From: a virus
Reading direction: 5' to 3' (one strand)
Length of the DNA stretch: 64,000 nucleotides
IMG/VR virus record: IMGVR_UViG_3300013132_000041
Span: 1-64,000 of that record
The notes beneath the pieces were generated by a model that saw nothing but the letters and a program-made list of their open reading frames with translations, ran no database searches and was not told the DNA's origin. Positions 33,606 through 45,129 of this stretch are shown here, one piece after another. Numbering within the stretch: position 1 is the first letter of the stretch; each line of letters starts with the position of its first letter. Position numbers and translations under genes: made by a program.

Positions 33606-33633
33606 AAAAAAGGGAGCCTAGCTCCCTTTTTTT
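33606..33633. terminator. Bidirectional intrinsic terminator
   Basis: A6-GGGAGC-CTA-GCTCCC-T7 between convergent genes. Confidence 0.9.
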
Positions 33634-35383
33634 ATGCAAACGCTGATACCCTATCCACATATCTTTCTAATGCTGAACTCATCGTTCCTCTTGGTTGAGC
33701 TTTAATAGGAGACAGTGTTTGAGTATTATTAGTTTGTACTGTATTAGAAACTATTGGTGGCGCTAGTGTGGGAGCAGATGATTGACGTTTTAAATCTTCA
33801 TTATCTCTACTCATTTCAGACATGGGTGTTGCTATATCTTTTTTCTCTGCAGGTGTTATTTTATTAACAAGCTCTTGCTTTTGTTTACTATATTGTGCTT
33901 CGATTGCGGGCGGATATTGTTTACCCATATCTTTAGCCATACCAATTACTGCCATTTGTTTTTCAGATAATGGTTGTCCTTCTATATATGCTTCGCCTGC
34001 TATTCTTATTCCCTTTTCTTCAATTTTACCAGGAGTAGGTGTCTCATCTTTTTTACCTATTCCAAAAAATGAGCCAATAGCATTTCCTGCTTTTTGAATA
34101 CCTTGAGCAGCAGTTTTTTCGCTTAATAATCCGAAAGTTGCGCCGGAAGCTATACCACCTAAGGTTGATGATATTTTTTGTCCTGTTGTAGCTTTTTCAC
34201 CTTCTTTGAGATCAAAATTCTGTTCTGTGTTTTGAAATCCCTCGAAACCACTGTAAGCAGCTCCAGCTATTGCTGCCGCTGGTCCTAATACTTTTGCAGC
34301 TTTGCCAGCCATACCCAAAAATTTACTTACTTTTCCCCCTGCTTTATCTGGGGCTTTGCCATTACCTGCTATATCTCCAATAGCATCTAATCCAGATTTA
34401 GCAACATCAAGTGCTCCTACTCCTCCACCCCCTTCCCCACCGCTCTGAGATTTCAATTCTTCGGGATTTATAACTTTAACTAATATACCATCATTTAACA
34501 TAGCCTTTTTAATACTAGCTATATCTTCAACAAGCTTTGTTGAAATTGTTCCAGAAGACGAAGGTTGCTCTATTTTCTTAGATGTGTCTAATATAGAAGG
34601 CGTTGGATTAGTTTTTTGCTTGGGTCCCTCAAGCATTAATGGAGCTATAGATTTGGGTGCTTCTAGTATAGGAGTTTTAGATTGTACAGGCGTAACATCT
34701 ATTACATCATCATATTTTTTCTTAGGCGCTTCTAGTAAAGGAGTTTTAAGTTCAATCTTAGGTGCTTCTAATACCAATGGTTTAGATGAGTTTACTTCAG
34801 GGGCATTTAATAAGGGAGATTCTGGGAAAAGTTGTTTTCTTTCTCCCTTACCAACATAATTGGCTATTGGTCCCTTATTCTCTAACATAGGTGTTTTAGA
34901 TTGCAAAGCAGGTGTTTTTGATACTGGTACATTAGAATATACCTGTTGCATTTCTCCCCTACCTACAAATTTAGGTATAGGAGCTTTTTCCTCTAAAGCT
35001 AAGTTTTTAGGTTCAATTTCTTTTTCAAGTGCCGTAATGTTTGTTTTGCCCTTAACACTTGATTTTATTTTTTTCCCAAAGAAAAATTCTTTATATTCCT
35101 CAATTCTTTTACCAAAGCCTGTAAAAAAATCTGTTATACTTCCGAAAGATTTCACGAATTCCTCATCGTCTTTATCTTTAGAATATTTTTTAGATTTACC
35201 TAAACCTTTAGTAATCGCTGTGAGTTGAATTTTATCTATTAAATCTTTGAGAATAGCATTATTATCTTTTAGTACGTCGAGTATTTTCTCGTCAACCTTG
35301 ACAATATCATCAGTTTCTCTTTTGAAAACTCGACGTAGTTCTAAGAACTCAACATTCTGTAGTGTTTGTTGAGAAATTGCCAT
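33632..35383 (-). CDS. Tape-measure / baseplate hub gp29-like protein
   Basis: 583 aa, with G/A-rich amphipathic segments, downstream of gp26/gp51. The call is mainly positional. Confidence 0.5.
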   Translation of the reverse strand: MAISQQTLQNVEFLELRRVFKRETDDIVKVDEKILDVLKDNNAILKDLIDKIQLTAITKGLGKSKKYSKDKDDEEFVKSFGSITDFFTGFGKRIEEYKEFFFGKKIKSSVKGKTNITALEKEIEPKNLALEEKAPIPKFVGRGEMQQVYSNVPVSKTPALQSKTPMLENKGPIANYVGKGERKQLFPESPLLNAPEVNSSKPLVLEAPKIELKTPLLEAPKKKYDDVIDVTPVQSKTPILEAPKSIAPLMLEGPKQKTNPTPSILDTSKKIEQPSSSGTISTKLVEDIASIKKAMLNDGILVKVINPEELKSQSGGEGGGGVGALDVAKSGLDAIGDIAGNGKAPDKAGGKVSKFLGMAGKAAKVLGPAAAIAGAAYSGFEGFQNTEQNFDLKEGEKATTGQKISSTLGGIASGATFGLLSEKTAAQGIQKAGNAIGSFFGIGKKDETPTPGKIEEKGIRIAGEAYIEGQPLSEKQMAVIGMAKDMGKQYPPAIEAQYSKQKQELVNKITPAEKKDIATPMSEMSRDNEDLKRQSSAPTLAPPIVSNTVQTNNTQTLSPIKAQPRGTMSSALERYVDRVSAFA

Positions 35384-35386
35384 TTA

Positions 35387-35959
35387 TTATACTGGTCTTC
35401 TAACTATTGGTCTAATTGATGCACCGTCACTAGGAGCGGATTCCGCCATTGGTTGTGACAATGGCATATTTGATCCCGAATCAGCATAACTTACAGGCAT
35501 AGGTCTCGGCGCCATATTCTGTTGTGCCGGAATAGCTGCACCAGTAACTGGTGTTGTACCAGGTGTAAATTTGGGCGGCTCTGAGCTTAGAGTTGGGGTT
35601 GCTACTCCGCCTGCTGCTCCTGCAATCTTTTCCTGAGTACGACCAAATGCACTAACACCCAATACTGCACCCATGGCTACGTGAAATAAACCACCGCCTT
35701 GCAGCGTTATGGGCACCCATTGTCTAAACGCATCATTGGCTGCTTGAGTTTCCCAGAACTGCACAATAGTAAACATAATGGGAAATATAGCAAAATCAGC
35801 AAGGCAGCAAATCATGTACATTATAGCCATCATTGGACGCCATTTCTTAGTCATCCAATCTTCTTTATTCTCGTTTCCGGGAATCAGCTTAGAATCTTCT
35901 TCTTTAGTTTCTTCCACTTTAGGTTCCTCTTTCTTTTTAGTTCCAAATTGAAATCCCAT
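35387..35959 (-). CDS. Membrane protein, 3TM holin-like
   Basis: WM..KWRPMM...D..IFP...W.P.TLQGGGLFHVAMGAVLGVSAFGRTQEK. Confidence 0.6.
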   Translation of the reverse strand: MGFQFGTKKKEEPKVEETKEEDSKLIPGNENKEDWMTKKWRPMMAIMYMICCLADFAIFPIMFTIVQFWETQAANDAFRQWVPITLQGGGLFHVAMGAVLGVSAFGRTQEKIAGAAGGVATPTLSSEPPKFTPGTTPVTGAAIPAQQNMAPRPMPVSYADSGSNMPLSQPMAESAPSDGASIRPIVRRPV

Positions 35960-35969
35960 ATCAGTTCCT

Positions 35970-36128
35970 TTAACTAAATTCTCTATTCTTATTTTGCATT
36001 CTTATTTTTTCGTTTTCTTCATGGATGTATTGAATCAATAATGCTATATAAGTTTCTCTTTCCCAGGGCAACATATTTTCCAATTCTGATAATGAATATT
36101 TGTGATGATGCATCAAAGCAAAATTCAT
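35970..36128 (-). CDS. gp51: gp51-like baseplate hub assembly protein (probably expressed as a -1 frameshift extension of gp26)
   Basis: Below the ORF-track cutoff: MNFALMHHHKYSLSELENMLPWERETYIALLIQYIHEENEK...*. The frame stays open upstream to the gp26 slippery site. Confidence 0.8.
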   Translation of the reverse strand: MNFALMHHHKYSLSELENMLPWERETYIALLIQYIHEENEKIRMQNKNREFS

Positions 36129-36163
36129 TTTGAAATAATTTAGTAAATCATCTTGAGAAAGAT

Positions 36164-36859
36164 TTAAACGAAAAAACTTTGAAGGCCCTCCAATTTTACT
36201 ACGTTATGTTTGCCGCACTTATCACAATCTGCTTCAATGGTTTGTTCTAATCTAGGCATAGTTAGAAAAAACTCTTCTACTTGCTCAAATTGTTTTCTAG
36301 TAAAATCATTTACAAACTCTAAAACCTCATCTTCTGTTTGTTCTGAAGAATCCCAGTAATTTTTCTTATCATAAATACCCTTAATACATTTTATAACTAG
36401 TTTAACTATATCATCTTGGTCATTGTTTTCATACGCTTTAATAACTTCCTCATACGTAGGATATCGCATCTCTATACCAATAGTGTCAGTTAACTGTATT
36501 TTGCTATTATGTTTTTCATTTTTTACTACTTTAGCATCATATAAATTGGCAGTATGTTCTATTTTATTACCGCAATCACAGTTTATAATTAAGTCTAAAG
36601 TTTCACCTATGGATTTTGCTCTAAGTTGAATAAAGATATACTCTATATCAAAATTAGTTAAATCTGTCGTCTTCAATTGTTCAAAGGTACAAACGTTAAC
36701 TAAATCTTTGATTACTCTAAATATTTCTATTTCATTAGCATCTTTCAAAGTTAAAAGAATTTTGTGTTCTTTAACTAGAAAAGGTCTGTACTTAACAGTT
36801 TTTCCTGTAGAAGGAAGTTTTAATTCATAGGTTGGTGTGTTTAGTTTAGGTAAAGCCAT
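36164..36859 (-). CDS. gp26: Baseplate hub assembly protein gp26
   Basis: MALPKL.TPTYEL.LPSTGK.VKYRPFLVKE.KILL, FDIEYIF.QLRAKS.GE, CxC...CxxC...LEGLQSFF. Confidence 0.9.
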   Translation of the reverse strand: MALPKLNTPTYELKLPSTGKTVKYRPFLVKEHKILLTLKDANEIEIFRVIKDLVNVCTFEQLKTTDLTNFDIEYIFIQLRAKSIGETLDLIINCDCGNKIEHTANLYDAKVVKNEKHNSKIQLTDTIGIEMRYPTYEEVIKAYENNDQDDIVKLVIKCIKGIYDKKNYWDSSEQTEDEVLEFVNDFTRKQFEQVEEFFLTMPRLEQTIEADCDKCGKHNVVKLEGLQSFFV

Positions 36860-36871
36860 ACTATATCCTTA

Positions 36872-37588
36872 TCATGCTGATATTGGTAAATCACTACCTG
36901 GTGTATCTTCCAAATTACCAGTAGTTGGATTAAATTGTCGTCTCGCTGTTTTTTCCGGTAAACTTTCTTCAGGTCTTTTAATAAATGATTTTGAATCAGG
37001 GGGAGGGATGAACGGCATAGTTCTTTGAACAGTAGCTACTGTTTCGTTATCCATAACTGCTGTCCAATATCTGTAAGCAAACATAACAGTTAATCTATGT
37101 GTTTGATTTTGCGTTGCATTATTCAATGCCATTATATTAATAGATCTAGGAAAAGCTTCCTTCAGAACACATCTATAAGTAACGTTATCTGTTTCATCTA
37201 ATTGATAAATTGTAATGTCTTGAGCATACTCATCTTGATATGCAACCAAAAAAGTATCCTGTTCAACAATAGAATAACACCATTCCTCAAAAAATCTTTT
37301 TATAATCATTTCTCTATCAACATGAAAAGTCATAGATATACCTTCACCGCCGAATTCGGCGGATACTGGTCTTTGAAATGATGGTCCGAATATTTTATAG
37401 TTTTTAGTGTTTACTATTAAAGGTGGAAAATTGGTTTCTTCGCAGTATAAACTCACCACTCTACCAAACTGCCTGTAAAATGAATTTAAACCTAAAGGTA
37501 CGGGTATTTCTACTTCGAACCGATTTGGTCTTGCTAAACCATAACCCAAAACTTCGCTTCTAAATTCATTTAAACTAAATGTTGCCAT
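36872..37588 (-). CDS. gp54: Tail-tube-like baseplate-tube initiator (gp54-like)
   Basis: GLARPNRFEV...L.CE...P...Y...ITIYQLD...L.EAFP......L....N....LTV.FAYRYW. Confidence 0.7.
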   Translation of the reverse strand: MATFSLNEFRSEVLGYGLARPNRFEVEIPVPLGLNSFYRQFGRVVSLYCEETNFPPLIVNTKNYKIFGPSFQRPVSAEFGGEGISMTFHVDREMIIKRFFEEWCYSIVEQDTFLVAYQDEYAQDITIYQLDETDNVTYRCVLKEAFPRSINIMALNNATQNQTHRLTVMFAYRYWTAVMDNETVATVQRTMPFIPPPDSKSFIKRPEESLPEKTARRQFNPTTGNLEDTPGSDLPISA

Positions 37589-38151
37589 TAGTATTTTGCC
37601 TTTGAATCTTCCCAAACTTTGGTTTTATTTGCGCCCACAAATTTGTCTACGGGTAACAAAGCAGCAGTTACCCAATTAGTTATAGGTACTTCAAAAAATC
37701 TAGATTCCACGTGATCTGCTAAATAATGTTTTACACAAGCTTTAACTGGAGCCAGTCTAGAAGATCTAGTTAAAATTCTCCATGATATTTGTAGTTTTGT
37801 AGTCTCATTCATTTTGTCATTATTTAGATATTCCGAAAGATATCCTAACAATTTAAATCTTGCCAAGTACGGCAAATAATGTAAATTTAAGCCATAGAAA
37901 CCATTTGGTATTTTTCTAAAAGGTAATACCAGGGGAAAGGTATCATAATACGGTAATTTATTTTTATGTTTTGGATCATAAAAGAATAAATACATTTTAC
38001 CAGGAATCACTCTGTTTACTAGATATTCTCTTTCTCTCATAATGTTTGTGCCGCTCAAAGTACCAAGTTTTCTTACTTGGGCTTGATACCATTGAACAGA
38101 CATATCGACATTTTTTGGGTCGACAGATATGGAAGTAAAGGAGGTAGCCAT
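37588..38151 (-). CDS. gp2: DNA end protector gp2
   Basis: G.MY.F.YDPK.K.KLPYYD.FPLV...GLNLHYL...K.YL..HV. Confidence 0.9.
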   Translation of the reverse strand: MATSFTSISVDPKNVDMSVQWYQAQVRKLGTLSGTNIMREREYLVNRVIPGKMYLFFYDPKHKNKLPYYDTFPLVLPFRKIPNGFYGLNLHYLPYLARFKLLGYLSEYLNNDKMNETTKLQISWRILTRSSRLAPVKACVKHYLADHVESRFFEVPITNWVTAALLPVDKFVGANKTKVWEDSKAKY

Positions 38152-38155
38152 AGTA

Positions 38156-38614
38156 TTATTTATTGTAGGTTTGAATTCCTAAATCTTTCTCAGTAAGTAT
38201 CATGAATTTCATCTTGCGATCTTCGCAATATTCGAATGCTGCCTTCCATTTGGCTTCATTTACCCCATATTGGAACACCTCATCTATAAACTGTTTGGTT
38301 TTGCGTTTAGGTATAGAAGGAGGTTTGGTGAATTTTTCTGGTTTGATTTCTATTAGATATTTTTGAATTTTACCAGTTTTATCTAATACTTTAATAAAAA
38401 AATCCACGAAATATCTGTGTACTTTTTTATCAATAGGAGAAATATATGGAATAATAATTGTTTCTGAACCCCATTCTAAAATTGCGAGGTTGCCATCGCA
38501 CCATTTCATAAATTTGAGTTCCCAAAGAGACCTATAGATAACATTATTGATTTCTCCCCTATATTTACTGGGGTTTATTACTCTATATCGACCTTTGTAC
38601 GTATTTTTATACAT
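38156..38614 (-). CDS. gp4: Head completion nuclease gp4
   Basis: NP.KY.G....VIYRSLWE.KFM.WCD...W.SE...IPY.SP.D...HRYF.DF...EIKP...N.AKW.AA. Confidence 0.93.
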   Translation of the reverse strand: MYKNTYKGRYRVINPSKYRGEINNVIYRSLWELKFMKWCDGNLAILEWGSETIIIPYISPIDKKVHRYFVDFFIKVLDKTGKIQKYLIEIKPEKFTKPPSIPKRKTKQFIDEVFQYGVNEAKWKAAFEYCEDRKMKFMILTEKDLGIQTYNK

Positions 38615-40362: not shown

Positions 40363-41711
40363 GATCTGAGGATGTCCTGCAAAAAGCAGGTGAAGTTATA
40401 ATAGAATCTATGAAATTACTTAGTGTTAATAATACATTAACTGATCTTGATGAATTTTTAATTGAATTAAATTTGTATGAGGATATATTTACCAATTTTA
40501 TGCGAGGTGAAATATCTTTGTCTGATAGTAGAAATCTAATTCAAAGTTTGCCTATAATTGGTGAAGAATACTTATTACTTAGATTTAGAACACCAACTTT
40601 TCCTAACGCTATAGAAAAAACCTTTAGAGTAGTTCAAATTACTGATAGAAAAATTGTAAGAGATAATAATACGCAAACTTTTGTATTACATTTTGTTTCT
40701 CAAGAATTAATAGCTGACGTTTTGCTTCCATTGTATAAAAGTTTTGAAGGAAGTATTGATGATGTTGTTATAGATATTTTTACTGATAATCTAATGATGA
40801 ATAGGGAATTTGAAACTAATAGTGATGAATCTATTCTCAAGGAAATAGAAATAGTTACCCCGTTAAAAGTAATTACAGAAACAGAAAATAAAGTAAAATT
40901 TGTAAGTCCAGGTTGGTCTCCCTTTAAGTGTATTAATTGGTTGGCATCTAAAGCAATACCTAAAGAAGGTAAAGCATGCAATTTTTTATTTTTCGAATCT
41001 AATAAAGCTTTTTATTTTGGTAGTATAGAATCAATTTTTGATTTTACAAATAAAAACAAAAGTTTTTTAGGAACCTATACTATATCAGCATCTAATATCA
41101 AAGAAATAGGCAACAATACTTTAAACAGAGAATTTTTTATCACAGAAAGTGTTGATATGGTAGCCACTACTGACCACATTAAAAATTATACCAATGGATA
41201 TTTGGCAAATAGATTAATAACATTAGATGTTTTTAATAAAGTATATGAATTAGTAGATTATGATCATACAACAGAATACTTTAATTATAAGCATACCTCA
41301 GGTGAAAATGCTATTCCAATTTTTGCAAAAGACAGTTTAAGAAATCCTGCATCTAGTGTGCATTTTTATCCTATTAATCCTAAACTATACAATAATTTTA
41401 CTGGTAATATTAACGAAAAAATTAAACAAATCTACGGAAATAGAAAATCCTCAATGCTTGAATTAACTAATTTAAAGTTAAATATTAATGTGCCGGGTAG
41501 AACAGATGTAGAAGTTGGTTCAATGTTAAGATTTAGTTATCCTGAACTCGGTCCACAAGACAACCCAAATACTAAAAATGAGGATATTCAGTATTCTGGG
41601 TACTATATTGTTACGGCTATCAGACATAAAATTACTAAAACTGATACTATAGAACATAGAATGATTATGGAAATTACTAAGGATTCACTTGTAGTGGGTG
41701 GTGACGTATGA
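40359..41711 (+). CDS. Baseplate hub protein (gp27-like)
   Basis: Between gp53 and gp5; YEDIF...G.I...D...LPIIGEE, FLFFE, VPG.....G...SG.Y.VTAIRH. Confidence 0.7.
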   Translation: MRSEDVLQKAGEVIIESMKLLSVNNTLTDLDEFLIELNLYEDIFTNFMRGEISLSDSRNLIQSLPIIGEEYLLLRFRTPTFPNAIEKTFRVVQITDRKIVRDNNTQTFVLHFVSQELIADVLLPLYKSFEGSIDDVVIDIFTDNLMMNREFETNSDESILKEIEIVTPLKVITETENKVKFVSPGWSPFKCINWLASKAIPKEGKACNFLFFESNKAFYFGSIESIFDFTNKNKSFLGTYTISASNIKEIGNNTLNREFFITESVDMVATTDHIKNYTNGYLANRLITLDVFNKVYELVDYDHTTEYFNYKHTSGENAIPIFAKDSLRNPASSVHFYPINPKLYNNFTGNINEKIKQIYGNRKSSMLELTNLKLNINVPGRTDVEVGSMLRFSYPELGPQDNPNTKNEDIQYSGYYIVTAIRHKITKTDTIEHRMIMEITKDSLVVGGDV

Positions 41712-42787
41712 ATATTTTTAATAAAGATGGATTTATATGGTGGATAGGTGTTGTAGAAGATAGAATGGATCCTGAAAAATCTGGCCGTGTACGAGTAAGA
41801 ATATATGGATATCATACCGACGATAAATTATTATTACCTACTAAAGATTTACCTTGGGCATTACCTATAACTCCCATTACATCTGCGTCTATTTCAGGTA
41901 TAGGTTCAACACCCTTAGGCCCAATTGAGGGTACTTGGGTAATTGGTTTTTTCCTCGACGGCGCTGATATGCAGCAACCTGCTATTTTTGGAACGATAGC
42001 TACTAAAGCTGCGCCAAAAGTATTTGTTCAAACTGAAGAAAAACCTGTAGTGGTAAACACGAATGATGGCATATTGAAAGATAGTCAAGGGCAACCCGTA
42101 GTAGATAGTAGTGGGCAACCAATAAGAGCAGGAGTGCCAGCAGTGGAAGGTTGGGAATTAGGGCAAACTTCAGAAAAATATGAAACTGGAGGAAAAGGTC
42201 CAGGCACTATAAACAACTATGCTAACACTGGAGATTTTGGAGGAGCGTCATATGGTACTTATCAGTTTGCTTCCTATTTACCCGAAACATTACCAAATGG
42301 TAAAGCCAGACCTAATTCCAAAAAATCGCCTTTAAAAGATTATTTAGCAGCATCTAGATATGGAGAAAAATTTACAGGAATGGAACCAGCTACATCTTCA
42401 TTTGATAATATGTGGAAATCGTTGGCTGCATCCAATCCTATAGAATTTAAAAAAGATCAACACGATTTTATACAAACTAAATACTACGATGTAATGTTAG
42501 CTAGCCTTAAAAGAAAAGGCTTGGATTTGTCTAAGTTTGGCCCGGGGGTGCAAGATCTAGTATGGTCAACTGCAGTTCAACTAGGACCTAATAGAACAAG
42601 TGTTTTTACTACACCTTTAGAAGGTAAAAGCGAATTGACCGATAAAGATATAATTGAACTTGTATCTAATTTTAAAATTAACAGCGTAGATACATTTTTT
42701 AAATCAAGCTCAGATAATATAAAAACTAGCGTTAAAACAAGATGGCAAAATGAAAAAACAGATTTGCTTAAACTGGTACAAGCATGA
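41708..42787 (+). CDS. gp5: gp5 N-terminal part: OB-fold plus a lysozyme-like peptidoglycan hydrolase domain
   Basis: WWIGVVEDR.DP...GRVRVR..G.H...LPWA...G.WV.GFF.DG...Q.P; then SEKYETGG.GPGTI...D.GGASYGTYQF, resembling the VgrG3 C-terminal domain. Confidence 0.8.
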   Translation: MNIFNKDGFIWWIGVVEDRMDPEKSGRVRVRIYGYHTDDKLLLPTKDLPWALPITPITSASISGIGSTPLGPIEGTWVIGFFLDGADMQQPAIFGTIATKAAPKVFVQTEEKPVVVNTNDGILKDSQGQPVVDSSGQPIRAGVPAVEGWELGQTSEKYETGGKGPGTINNYANTGDFGGASYGTYQFASYLPETLPNGKARPNSKKSPLKDYLAASRYGEKFTGMEPATSSFDNMWKSLAASNPIEFKKDQHDFIQTKYYDVMLASLKRKGLDLSKFGPGVQDLVWSTAVQLGPNRTSVFTTPLEGKSELTDKDIIELVSNFKINSVDTFFKSSSDNIKTSVKTRWQNEKTDLLKLVQA

Positions 42788-45129
42788 GTGATTCTATTAC
42801 TAAATTAGTAGGAGGTAGATTAGCTTCATCTTTAGGTAAAGCATTTGCTAGTCAAAATAATTTACCTATCAATAATACAGTGTTGAATACTATTATACCC
42901 AGTATTTCCACTAACATTGCTAAAGAAACTACAGGTATAGTTAATAAAGAAGCAAATTATCAGCTAAACGAAATTCCTAAAAATTTAGTAGGTATTAATA
43001 ATCCGGTAAATATAGTTTCTGGAAATATTCCTACATCTGCTTTGACCAATACTTTAAGAGATAATTTAGATGGCAAAGTTTATTCTGACGTAAATAATTC
43101 TATTTTACGAAAAGTAAACGAAGTGCTTAGTTTAAATTTACCTGGTGGTAGTAATAATCCTAGTTTTGAAAGTTTAAAAAATAATATTTTAAATTCTGTT
43201 CAAAATGATGTCGACAGAATAGTTAATTTAGCTTTAGGTAATTTTACAAATGGTGTTTTTAGTACTGGTATAACAATTCCGCCCATAGTGCCAGGTATAG
43301 ATAATTTATTTAATTCTGGTGATTCAAGTATCGGATTGCAAAGATATGATGATCAATATAACTCAGCATTAGTAGGTAAAGCGTTAACAGAATCTCAACG
43401 TTTTAATCCTGTAAATTCAGAAAATATTGCTAAATTGGAAGTAACTAGAACAGGTTTTTCTGATCCAACTGCAACCTACCCAACTGAGGAATATAAAAAC
43501 AGACCCGATACAAATAAACTAGCTACGGGCGACGTAAACGGAACAGTAGTTCAAAAGAAAAATGAAGAACGGATGATTGGGGCCAAATTACCAGGCAATT
43601 CTTCTTGGTCACAGCCCGAATCCCCCTTTAAAGGTGAGTATCCATACAATAAAGTTACACAAACAGAGCAAGGTCACATTATTGAAATAGATGATACGCC
43701 AGGTGCAGAAAGATTACACATATATCATAAATCTGGAACATTTGTTGAAATAGATTCCAACGGCTCTTTGGTAAAACGAACCAAAGGTTCCAATTATGAA
43801 ATAATAGATAGAAACGGATATATTTCAATAGCAGGTAAAGCTGATATTTCTATAAATGGAGCATGTAATATTTTTGTGGGAAATGATGCAAATATAGAAG
43901 TTGAGGGTGATACTAATATTACATGTCATAATGATATTACTGCACAAGCAGGCGGTGCTTTTAGATTATCTGCAGTTGAAAGTTTTAGTATTAGAAGTGC
44001 TAATGTATTCATAGAAGCAGACAATGAATTAAATGTTTTATCTGGGAATGTTACCAAATTATCGTCTAATGTGATACATGGTAATGCTATATCTAATATG
44101 TTTATCTCCTCTAAAGATTATTATGGTAAATATAACAACAATTATTACATTGAAGTTTTGAATGATTCCCACCTTAAAGTTGCAGGCGACCAATATATTT
44201 CATCAGATAATTTTTATAATAAACAATCTGCTTCTTTTTATGTAGAAACAGGTAATGATTTACATCTTAATGTAACGGGTAATTTTAATGCAGATACAGG
44301 TGGTATTTTTGATTTTGCAAATGGTTCCGCAGACACATCGAAAAATGCTTTGGAATCTTTAAGAGCAACAACTGCTTTAAATTCATATGCAGGATTAATG
44401 ATAGGTAGAAAAGATATAAATTACATAGATATAGCTGATCCGTTGTTTCTTACAACAGCAGATTTGTATGTATTGTCCGCAGAAGAACCAAATGATTCTG
44501 AAACAGAGGTAAATATAACTAGAAAGAACGCATCTACTGCAGGAATAGTTTCTAAGGAAAAATTTGAAGAAATACCTGTACCTTTAGTATCAGATAAACC
44601 AAAAAGTGATAACAGTATTTTCATAACACCTGGCGCAGAACTTAAAAGTATTTCAGAGGCACCAGATAACTTTAATTTGTCTCCCAATTTTACGTTGGGT
44701 ATGCTTTCTAGTAAAGCCGCAGTGACAAAAAATAAACTTACAGCCCAGGCAGGAAGAACATACGGAGAATTACTATTTAATCTAAGCGCAATAGCTTTGA
44801 ATATATGTGAGCCTGTTCTTAAATTATATCCTAACATGTACGTTACTTCGGCTTTTAGATTATCTGGTAATTCTTCATCCACATCGCAACATCCATTGGG
44901 GCAAGCAGTTGATATTCAATTCAAAGGAGTAAGTAAAAAAGAATATTATGAGATTGCTAAAATTTTAGCAACTAAGTTGAACTACGATCAATTACTGTTA
45001 GAATATGCAGCAACTACTAATAATCCCTGGATACATATATCTTTGGATGTTGCAAAAAATAATAGAATTCAAGTGATGACTTTTAATGATCATAAAAAAT
45101 ATGCCGATGGTTTGAGTCAATTGGCATAA
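42784..45129 (+). CDS. gp5: gp5 C-terminal part: beta-helix spike plus a C-terminal M15 Zn peptidase
   Basis: YPYNKV..TE.GH..E.DDTPGAER.H.YH.SGTF.E; LSPNFTL...TS.FR...SQH..GQAVDI...WIHIS. Confidence 0.8.
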   Translation: MSDSITKLVGGRLASSLGKAFASQNNLPINNTVLNTIIPSISTNIAKETTGIVNKEANYQLNEIPKNLVGINNPVNIVSGNIPTSALTNTLRDNLDGKVYSDVNNSILRKVNEVLSLNLPGGSNNPSFESLKNNILNSVQNDVDRIVNLALGNFTNGVFSTGITIPPIVPGIDNLFNSGDSSIGLQRYDDQYNSALVGKALTESQRFNPVNSENIAKLEVTRTGFSDPTATYPTEEYKNRPDTNKLATGDVNGTVVQKKNEERMIGAKLPGNSSWSQPESPFKGEYPYNKVTQTEQGHIIEIDDTPGAERLHIYHKSGTFVEIDSNGSLVKRTKGSNYEIIDRNGYISIAGKADISINGACNIFVGNDANIEVEGDTNITCHNDITAQAGGAFRLSAVESFSIRSANVFIEADNELNVLSGNVTKLSSNVIHGNAISNMFISSKDYYGKYNNNYYIEVLNDSHLKVAGDQYISSDNFYNKQSASFYVETGNDLHLNVTGNFNADTGGIFDFANGSADTSKNALESLRATTALNSYAGLMIGRKDINYIDIADPLFLTTADLYVLSAEEPNDSETEVNITRKNASTAGIVSKEKFEEIPVPLVSDKPKSDNSIFITPGAELKSISEAPDNFNLSPNFTLGMLSSKAAVTKNKLTAQAGRTYGELLFNLSAIALNICEPVLKLYPNMYVTSAFRLSGNSSSTSQHPLGQAVDIQFKGVSKKEYYEIAKILATKLNYDQLLLEYAATTNNPWIHISLDVAKNNRIQVMTFNDHKKYADGLSQLA

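Follow-up and report, generated by a model that had tools for sequence, protein, structure and literature searches.

A predicted -1 ribosomal frameshift joining gp26 to a gp51 module in a lake-water T4-like phage and its relatives

The stretch of DNA analyzed here (the window) comprises 64,000 nucleotides (nt), positions 1 to 64,000 of the virus record IMGVR_UViG_3300013132_000041, a 75.6-kb viral fragment, approximately 48% complete, obtained from lake-water metagenomes. Its minus strand carries a T4-like gp26 gene whose 3' end is overlapped by a gp51-like reading frame, and comparison of this junction with those of related phages indicates that gp26 very probably gives rise to two products, of 231 and 296 amino acids (aa), the longer one by -1 ribosomal frameshifting on the heptamer T_TTT_TTC. 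We also lean, with less assurance, towards a broader reading, in which this frameshift would be the missing tail assembly chaperone system of the whole T4 superfamily, of the type formed by G and GT in phage lambda, and T4 itself would be derived, the two frames having become separate genes, 26 and 51, through a duplication. The broader reading would span cyanophages and pelagiphages as well as freshwater, rhizobial, vibrio, aeromonad and xanthomonad phages.

Organization of the gp26/gp51 junction

The window's gp26 is the single PF12322 gene of the 75.6-kb record, and it matched this profile ('T4_baseplate') over its full length (positions 2-218 of 219; 212.2 bits, cut-off 24.5). Its last codons read AGT TTT TTC GTT TAA, in which the heptamer T_TTT_TTC, in the phase X_XXY_YYZ, precedes the stop by one codon (Table 1). 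From the heptamer onwards the -1 frame remains open for 68 codons, with the translation FF-RLNLSQDDLLNYFK-MNFALMHHH..., and the predicted products are consequently a short form of 231 aa and a long form of 296 aa (228 + 68). A preliminary description of this DNA, made from the letters alone, had proposed a fusion of gp26 to gp51 with precisely this heptamer, open frame and pair of product sizes, all of which can be read directly in the sequence. Its naming of the two frames also proved correct: the upstream open reading frame (ORF) belongs to the gp26 family (PF12322), and the -1 piece matched phrog_634, the 'baseplate hub assembly catalyst' family of gp51 (E 3.4e-24).

The match to phrog_634 begins at the second residue after the shift, that is, 13 residues ahead of the first ATG of the frame, and the same piece also matched positions 235-276 of the 282-position phrog_150 (gp26) profile. 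The motif LSxxxLxNYYKxNFAL, which the preliminary description had attributed to gp51-like homologs, is real and was seen in their consensus. The absence of an early start codon and of an evident ribosome-binding site had likewise been anticipated; the first ATG of the frame is indeed codon 17 of the extension and lacks a purine-rich Shine-Dalgarno (SD) sequence, whereas AAGGA is found 6-8 nt ahead of the starts of gp26 and of the downstream 190-aa ORF.

Within the body of gp26 the -1 frame is interrupted by 40 stops in 229 codons, with a longest open run of 12 codons, and it then stays open for 77 codons spanning the junction, having opened 9 codons ahead of the heptamer. At the stop density of the gp26 body, the chance of 68 open codons is approximately 2e-6. 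Taken by itself as a statistical oddity, TTTTTTC was rejected (54 occurrences in the AT-rich window vs. 32 expected); the arrangement stands above chance because of its context, i.e. the open -1 run and the invariant phase and position, rather than because of the heptamer alone.

Conservation of the heptamer among related phages

Related loci were gathered by gp26 similarity alone in two scans of viral contigs, which yielded 83 loci at 49-90% identity and 80 at 37-44%. Considering the 167 loci with a complete gp26 3' end (37-90% identity to the gp26 of the window, or from five other phage lineages), T_TTT_TTN was present in the same phase, two to three codons ahead of the stop, in every one (167/167). 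The conservation of the heptamer across T4-like gp26 3' ends, which the preliminary description had proposed to check, thus holds throughout this set; homologs lacking the heptamer and having a gp51 start of their own had been named there as the opposite outcome, and what was found is that the heptamer is kept and that most close relatives have no such start. In the two scans, the seventh base was mostly C, with T in approximately 20 loci and A in 2. The 0-frame stop followed the heptamer after 0-1 codons in all but 2 loci, in which the 0 frame extends for 8 codons more. Every -1 peptide of the closer set begins with FF and has the gp51 motif, and in the distant set, where 78 of the 80 loci extend far enough, each of these showed a gp51 match in the -1 frame beginning at FF. 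The same arrangement was also present in Schizotequatrovirus (Vibrio phage phi-ST2), Emmerichvirinae (Aeromonas phage AS-zj), Pootjesviridae, Emdodecavirus, Menderavirus and Xanthomonas phage BUDD, as well as in Stenotrophomonas phage Yut3 and cyanophage S-CRM01; the heptamer reads TTTTTTG in Rhizobium phage AF3 and TTTTTTT in Sinorhizobium phage phiN3.

This breadth bears on the possibility that the junction is an artefact or a decaying gene, i.e. a homopolymer indel introduced by sequencing or assembly, or a gp51-type gene disrupted not long ago. Errors are frequent in homopolymer runs, and the record is a metagenomic fragment with a completeness of 48%; nonetheless, the same arrangement recurs in 167 independent contigs and cultured-phage genomes, the position of the 0-frame stop is conserved, and DNA contigs from four sequencing runs, which also confirmed the lake-water source, showed no indel at the T-run. 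Such an origin is hardly credible.

At the codon level, F229 of gp26 was TTT in 155 of 155 unique genes of the alignment, while the minority codon made up 8-66% at the seven other conserved Phe columns, in counts whose p-values treat related sequences as independent. Since F229 is always TTT and the other Phe columns are mixed, the constraint acts on the nucleotides. The T-run was also kept where the 0-frame residue becomes Leu (TTA, TTG) and in phages whose gp26 favours TTC, whereas a second TTTTTTC inside gp26 (36271-36265), which is out of phase, was not conserved.

No other DNA of the gp26 gene block is as conserved as the slip-site region, the junction being the best-conserved nucleotide stretch of a 2.2-kb region compared with public phages. 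As a separate observation, contig depth in the two source lake metagenomes was approximately fivefold higher only over the junction (36138-36205), the cause being contigs from other related phages, whose alignment to the window is confined to this region.

The homopolymeric nature of the site also raises the possibility of transcriptional slippage, in which RNA polymerase would add one U on the T-run and the edited mRNA would enter the gp51 frame, giving the same fusion. Around a quarter of the more distant loci have T7 or T8 runs, such as AGTTTTTTTTAA, and, the resulting protein being identical, comparative data cannot fully tell the two mechanisms apart. However, the window and most relatives have exactly six T, a run below the roughly 8-9 bases from which bacterial RNA polymerases slip appreciably, and the X_XXY_YY phase is invariant as the seventh base varies among C, T, A and G, which is the requirement of tandem tRNA slippage. 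Transcriptional slippage is, in view of this, very improbable.

Coding selection and predicted structure of the gp51 module

Among 74 unique close relatives, 61 had none of the start codons ATG, GTG and TTG among the first 20 codons of the -1 frame, and in 6 the first such codon was number 35. Codons 3-21 of this frame varied at third positions, with a ratio of nonsynonymous to synonymous polymorphism (pN/pS) of 0.34 (54 sequences), as opposed to 0.96 and 1.55 for the same bases in the other two frames, where stops occurred in 53-54 of the 54 sequences. These patterns indicate that translation of the -1 frame takes place ahead of any start and that its codons are under purifying selection. The residue at the position of the window's first -1 ATG was Met, Leu, Thr, Ile or Val among relatives.

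The AlphaFold2 model of the gp51 module (predicted local distance difference test, pLDDT, 87) consists of three helices, the first of which spans residues 2-25. As helix 1 begins at the junction, a start at M17 would truncate it, with the loss of two thirds of its length. No in-frame gp26-gp51 fusion was found among the longer proteins with a gp51 module, the search returning one 132-aa protein only, a result rated as weak evidence.

Relationship to gp26 and gp51 of T4

In T4, gp26 and gp51 are listed as hub assembly chaperones, the function of gp51 being unknown (Leiman et al. 2010, PMC3004832, Table 2). Both proteins (208 and 249 aa, respectively) are full-length members of PF12322 encoded by adjacent, divergently transcribed genes. 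The PF12322 domain covers residues 1-201 of T4 gp51 and is followed by a C-terminal part of approximately 48 residues that matches phrog_634, the hit to that family extending over residues 147-246.

The virtual 296-aa fusion aligned with T4 gp51 in one segment across the junction (E 1.5e-12), and so it did with gp51 of Aeromonas phage 25 (residues 13-283 vs. 6-249, E 2e-18), whose C-terminal end is also matched by the -1 piece of the window in tblastn. A profile built from 146 virtual long forms covered T4 gp51 to position 280 of 297, and T4 gp26 only to position 236, which is the junction. T4 gp51 is a gp26-like domain plus the module, collinear with the fusion, and T4 thus makes the same short/long pair from two genes.

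The two-gene phages T4, AV111 and PWKp18 provide a natural control, as they keep the FF dipeptide encoded by TTC TTT, with no slippery run; the run of six T is thus not dictated by the protein.

Predicted fold of gp26

The gp26 model obtained with AlphaFold2 (pLDDT 95) was compared exhaustively with 48,161 representative chains. The four best matches were 3FGX (Z 7.5), the HK97 tail assembly chaperone 2OB9 (Z 6.6), 3KLU (YqbN; Z 6.4) and 5IR0 (Z 5.7), each with 81-85 residues aligned on residues 1-93 of the model, and the next hit had a Z-score of 4.5. The first three are tail assembly chaperones (PMC9603447), and 5IR0 is the chaperone of a Vibrio satellite (PMC12987554). The four tail assembly chaperones with solved structures hence take ranks one to four; although their Z-scores are moderate, such a sweep of the model-based ranking can hardly be put down to chance. 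Foldseek against the PDB gave no match for gp26 with E <= 0.001, and a profile search of PDB sequences returned nothing significant. Altogether, the comparison supports a tail-assembly-chaperone fold for the modelled N-terminal domain of gp26 (about residues 1-93) and, with it, the analogy to the lambda G/GT pair drawn in the preliminary description, which had called for this comparison.

The C-terminal domain (about residues 92-231; 36164-36585, minus strand) has a CxC motif at residues 94/96 and a CxxC motif at 212/215, with C212 and C215 conserved in at least 90% of sequences. Weak structural matches linked this domain to the zinc ribbons of Cren7, ZitP, NrdR and ZPR1 (Z approximately 3-3.7), and faint Pfam zinc-ribbon hits were obtained for T4 gp51. 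Judging from the model, it looks like a four-Cys zinc-ribbon-like unit.

Proposed mechanism and evidence weighing against it

The slippery sequence of the window falls in a class, H_HH.U_UU.Y, whose member U_UU.U_UU.Y is efficient in Escherichia coli (PMC4066793). In the model that we infer, which covers the occurrence and efficiency of the slip, the partners bound and the direction in which the system evolved, the majority of ribosomes would read TTT TTC GTT and then the stop, yielding the 231-aa gp26. A minority, with tRNA-Phe on UUU in the P site and on UUC in the A site, would slip in tandem by -1 on U_UUU_UUC and read CGU and the following bases in the -1 frame, 66 more codons being added to complete the 296-aa gp26-gp51 fusion. 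Both forms would share the putative chaperone-fold and zinc-ribbon domains, and the long form would add the three-helix module. Lambda gpG/gpGT, by analogy, and T4 genetics suggest that the short/long pair would chaperone the assembly of the tape measure and the hub in a ratio set by the slip frequency; the shared domains would hold the tape measure or proteins of the hub, and recruitment of a tube-fold partner would fall to the helical module.

A possible stimulator is the SD-like GGAGG located 10 nt upstream of the heptamer. It overlaps a codon bias among relatives, in that the codon of Glu-224 was GAG in 62% of 134 of them, compared with 19-33% at six other conserved Glu columns. This is a hint, drawn from the sequence, that GGAGG might stimulate frameshifting. 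A search of Rfam gave nothing relevant.

Several observations weigh against frameshifting, in addition to the relatedness of the sequences behind the codon counts. GGAGG is not universal, and GAAGG takes its place in many relatives. RNAalifold predicted no pairs on 30 diverse junctions, so that no conserved downstream hairpin or pseudoknot was detected, and the 73-nt fold of the window itself was no better than that of shuffled sequences (z +0.6). A candidate 5-bp hairpin 6 nt past the heptamer was discarded, as it failed shuffle and slide controls. Furthermore, two lineages, Ackermannviridae Kamild and Vibrio D494, lack the heptamer, showing only an in-phase T_TTC tetramer and a TAATG that overlaps the gp26 stop, and in several distant lineages an ATG likewise overlaps this stop (TAATG or TGATG). 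The stop-overlapping ATGs and the heptamer-less lineages suggest that the module is perhaps functional as a separate small protein. The heptamer-less sites were located at L173:1990-2160 in Dickeya phage Kamild and at L179:1850-2050 in Vibrio phage D494; in these two phages the gp51 module may be either a separate small protein or a product of single-tRNA slippage.

For the window, the corresponding explanation would have gp51 made as a separate small protein, either from the ATG at 36128 (52 aa) or, immediately past the gp26 stop, by termination-reinitiation or from a non-canonical start, with the T-run kept for the sake of the FF at the C-terminus of gp26. It draws on the small separate gp51 annotated in public records, on the ATG overlapping the stop in some distant lineages, and on the presence of such an ATG in both heptamer-less lineages. 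On the other hand, the clade of the window has no canonical start ahead of 19 conserved codons under purifying selection, and the ATG at 36128 has no SD and would remove two thirds of helix 1. Nor does FF need TTT TTC, as seen in the T4-type TTC TTT and in the variation at other Phe columns, and the run is retained when the encoded residue is Leu. We regard a separate gp51 as plausible solely in genomes with an ATG across the stop, and in Kamild and D494 it may be the usual form; it is at odds with the window's clade, for which we consider it very improbable. Frameshifting on T_TTT_TTC is the reading retained in the following sections.

Genomic neighbourhood

The gp26/gp51 junction lies in a T4-like structural module (Table 1) that includes, on the same strand, gp4, gp2, a gp54-like gene, gp26, the gp51 module, a 190-aa membrane protein and a 583-aa low-complexity protein, and, on the opposite strand, gp48, gp53, gp5-like, gp6, gp7 and gp8. 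The gene order given in the preliminary description (tube-like gp54, gp26, gp51, holin-like, tape-measure-like) stood for its first three members, which matched phrog_45, PF12322 and phrog_634, respectively. The holin-like assignment corresponds to one Pfam hit barely past the cut-off, and relatives have small ORFs of varying size at this place. As for the tape measure, no match to PF25671 was found for the 583-aa ORF (BLASTP against T4 gp29, E 0.14; Atlas lead, 0.89), which is a candidate by its position, length and composition. The prediction of a complex between gp26 and the 583-aa ORF gave no answer (score 0.00), and counts neither for nor against their association.

Table 1. Coordinates of the gp26/gp51 junction and of flanking features in the window.
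Feature	Coordinates	Strand	Evidence or remarks
gp54-like baseplate tail-tube initiator, tube fold	36872..37615	-	phrog_45, E 3e-38; PF06841 below cut-off
gp26-like gene, short product of 231 aa	36164..36859	-	PF12322, E 9.5e-63; phrog_150 'baseplate hub', E 8.6e-68
SD-like GGAGG, possible stimulator	36187..36191	-	10 nt upstream of the heptamer; read directly
Slippery heptamer T_TTT_TTC, proposed -1 shift site	36170..36176	-	X_XXY_YYZ phase; base 36170 would be read twice
0-frame stop TAA of gp26	36164..36166	-	One codon past the heptamer
-1 frame extension, gp51 module	35970..36176	-	68 codons plus stop at 35972-35970
First ATG of the -1 frame, ORF-caller start	36126..36128	-	Codon 17 of the extension; no Shine-Dalgarno
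190-aa membrane protein ('holin-like')	35387..35959	-	PF11351 GTA_holin_3TM, 26.0 bits (cut-off 24.8); phrog_3427, E 2e-6
583-aa low-complexity protein, candidate tape measure	33632..35383	-	Length near that of T4 gp29 (590 aa); downstream of gp51

Two further observations were made in the surrounding module. The gp5-like hub/lysozyme protein is seemingly split into overlapping adjacent ORFs of 359 and 781 aa (41708-45129, plus strand), which match the N-terminal and later parts, respectively, of one profile, phrog_430. The gp4-like head closure protein (38156-38614, minus strand; phrog_218) also showed similarity to the TnsA-like endonuclease N-terminal domain PF08722 (E 1e-19).

Annotation of public genomes and significance

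No report of a gp26/gp51 frameshift was found in the open-access literature and bioRxiv, nor any record reporting the slip. In all 14 GenBank/RefSeq records inspected from frameshift-type or heptamer-less phages, gp51 was either a separate truncated ORF or had been missed, and no joined coding sequence was present; the records of five two-gene phages contain a full-length gene 51. In Pelagibacter phage Mosig (L002:2501-2698), for instance, the annotated gp51 starts at an internal ATG past conserved residues, and gp51 is uncalled in the public annotation of S-WAM1 (L085:1501-1701) and of Aeromonas phage AS-zj (L178:1893-2066). New in the present analysis are the codon control afforded by T4-type phages, the lineages devoid of the heptamer and the structural matches of gp26 to chaperones.

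In oceans and lakes, T4-like phages of the frameshift type rank among the most abundant viruses. If the frameshift is real, gp26 and gp51 of T4, hub factors regarded as essential and of unknown function, would gain a role as a short/long chaperone pair, and the words 'except T4' could be removed from the frameshift rule of long-tailed phages (PMC5009743). It would also explain why gp51 of cyanophages and vibriophages has approximately 20% of the T4 length (PMC3037559). Should the reading for the T4 superfamily be correct as well, this would identify the chaperone long sought for the tape measure and hub of T4, and gp51 would need re-annotation in hundreds of public genomes.

Comparison with known systems

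A conserved -1 frameshift of the tail assembly chaperone genes of long-tailed phages was reportedly described by Xu, Hendrix and Duda in 2004. A later review regards G-T frameshifting as a conserved trait of long-tailed phages, 'except T4' (Atkins et al. 2016, PMC5009743). The arrangement in the window resembles lambda gpG/gpGT in its overlapping ORFs, the second of which occupies the -1 frame and lacks a start, and in an X_XXY_YYZ heptamer a few codons ahead of the first stop. It also shares with it the location between a tube-fold gene and a long low-complexity protein, here with the 190-aa membrane protein intervening; neither product is expected in the virion, and the N-terminal domain of the first one is predicted to have the chaperone fold. 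In contrast to the lambda system, the proteins belong to PF12322, which does not resemble any known chaperone family in sequence, gp26 has an extra zinc-ribbon-like domain according to its model, and the T4 counterparts are assigned to baseplate-hub assembly, the binding of tape measure or tube being putative here.

In the dnaX gene of E. coli, which encodes tau and gamma, a -1 frameshift takes place with the aid of a strong downstream stem-loop, and the shifted product is the shorter one. The window shares with dnaX an SD-like element 10 nt upstream of a homopolymeric heptamer (here GGAGG, 36191-36187) and a 0-frame stop soon after it, but it differs in having no conserved downstream stem-loop and in that the shifted product would be the longer of the two.

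The gp51 proteins of cyanophages and of marine vibriophages have been described as lacking the first ~200 residues, with a length ~20% that of T4 gp51 (Sullivan et al. 2010, PMC3037559). That short gp51 is the same ORF as the one in the window, and the cited work offers no explanation for its size; under frameshifting, the missing N-terminal 200 residues would come from gp26. Finally, the comparison with T4 itself involves the same family, PF12322, the 296-aa fusion being collinear with gp51 and the 231-aa product with gp26. The difference lies in that T4 has two paralogous genes, transcribed divergently and lacking a slippery site, whereas in the window one gene and a -1 shift would yield both proteins.

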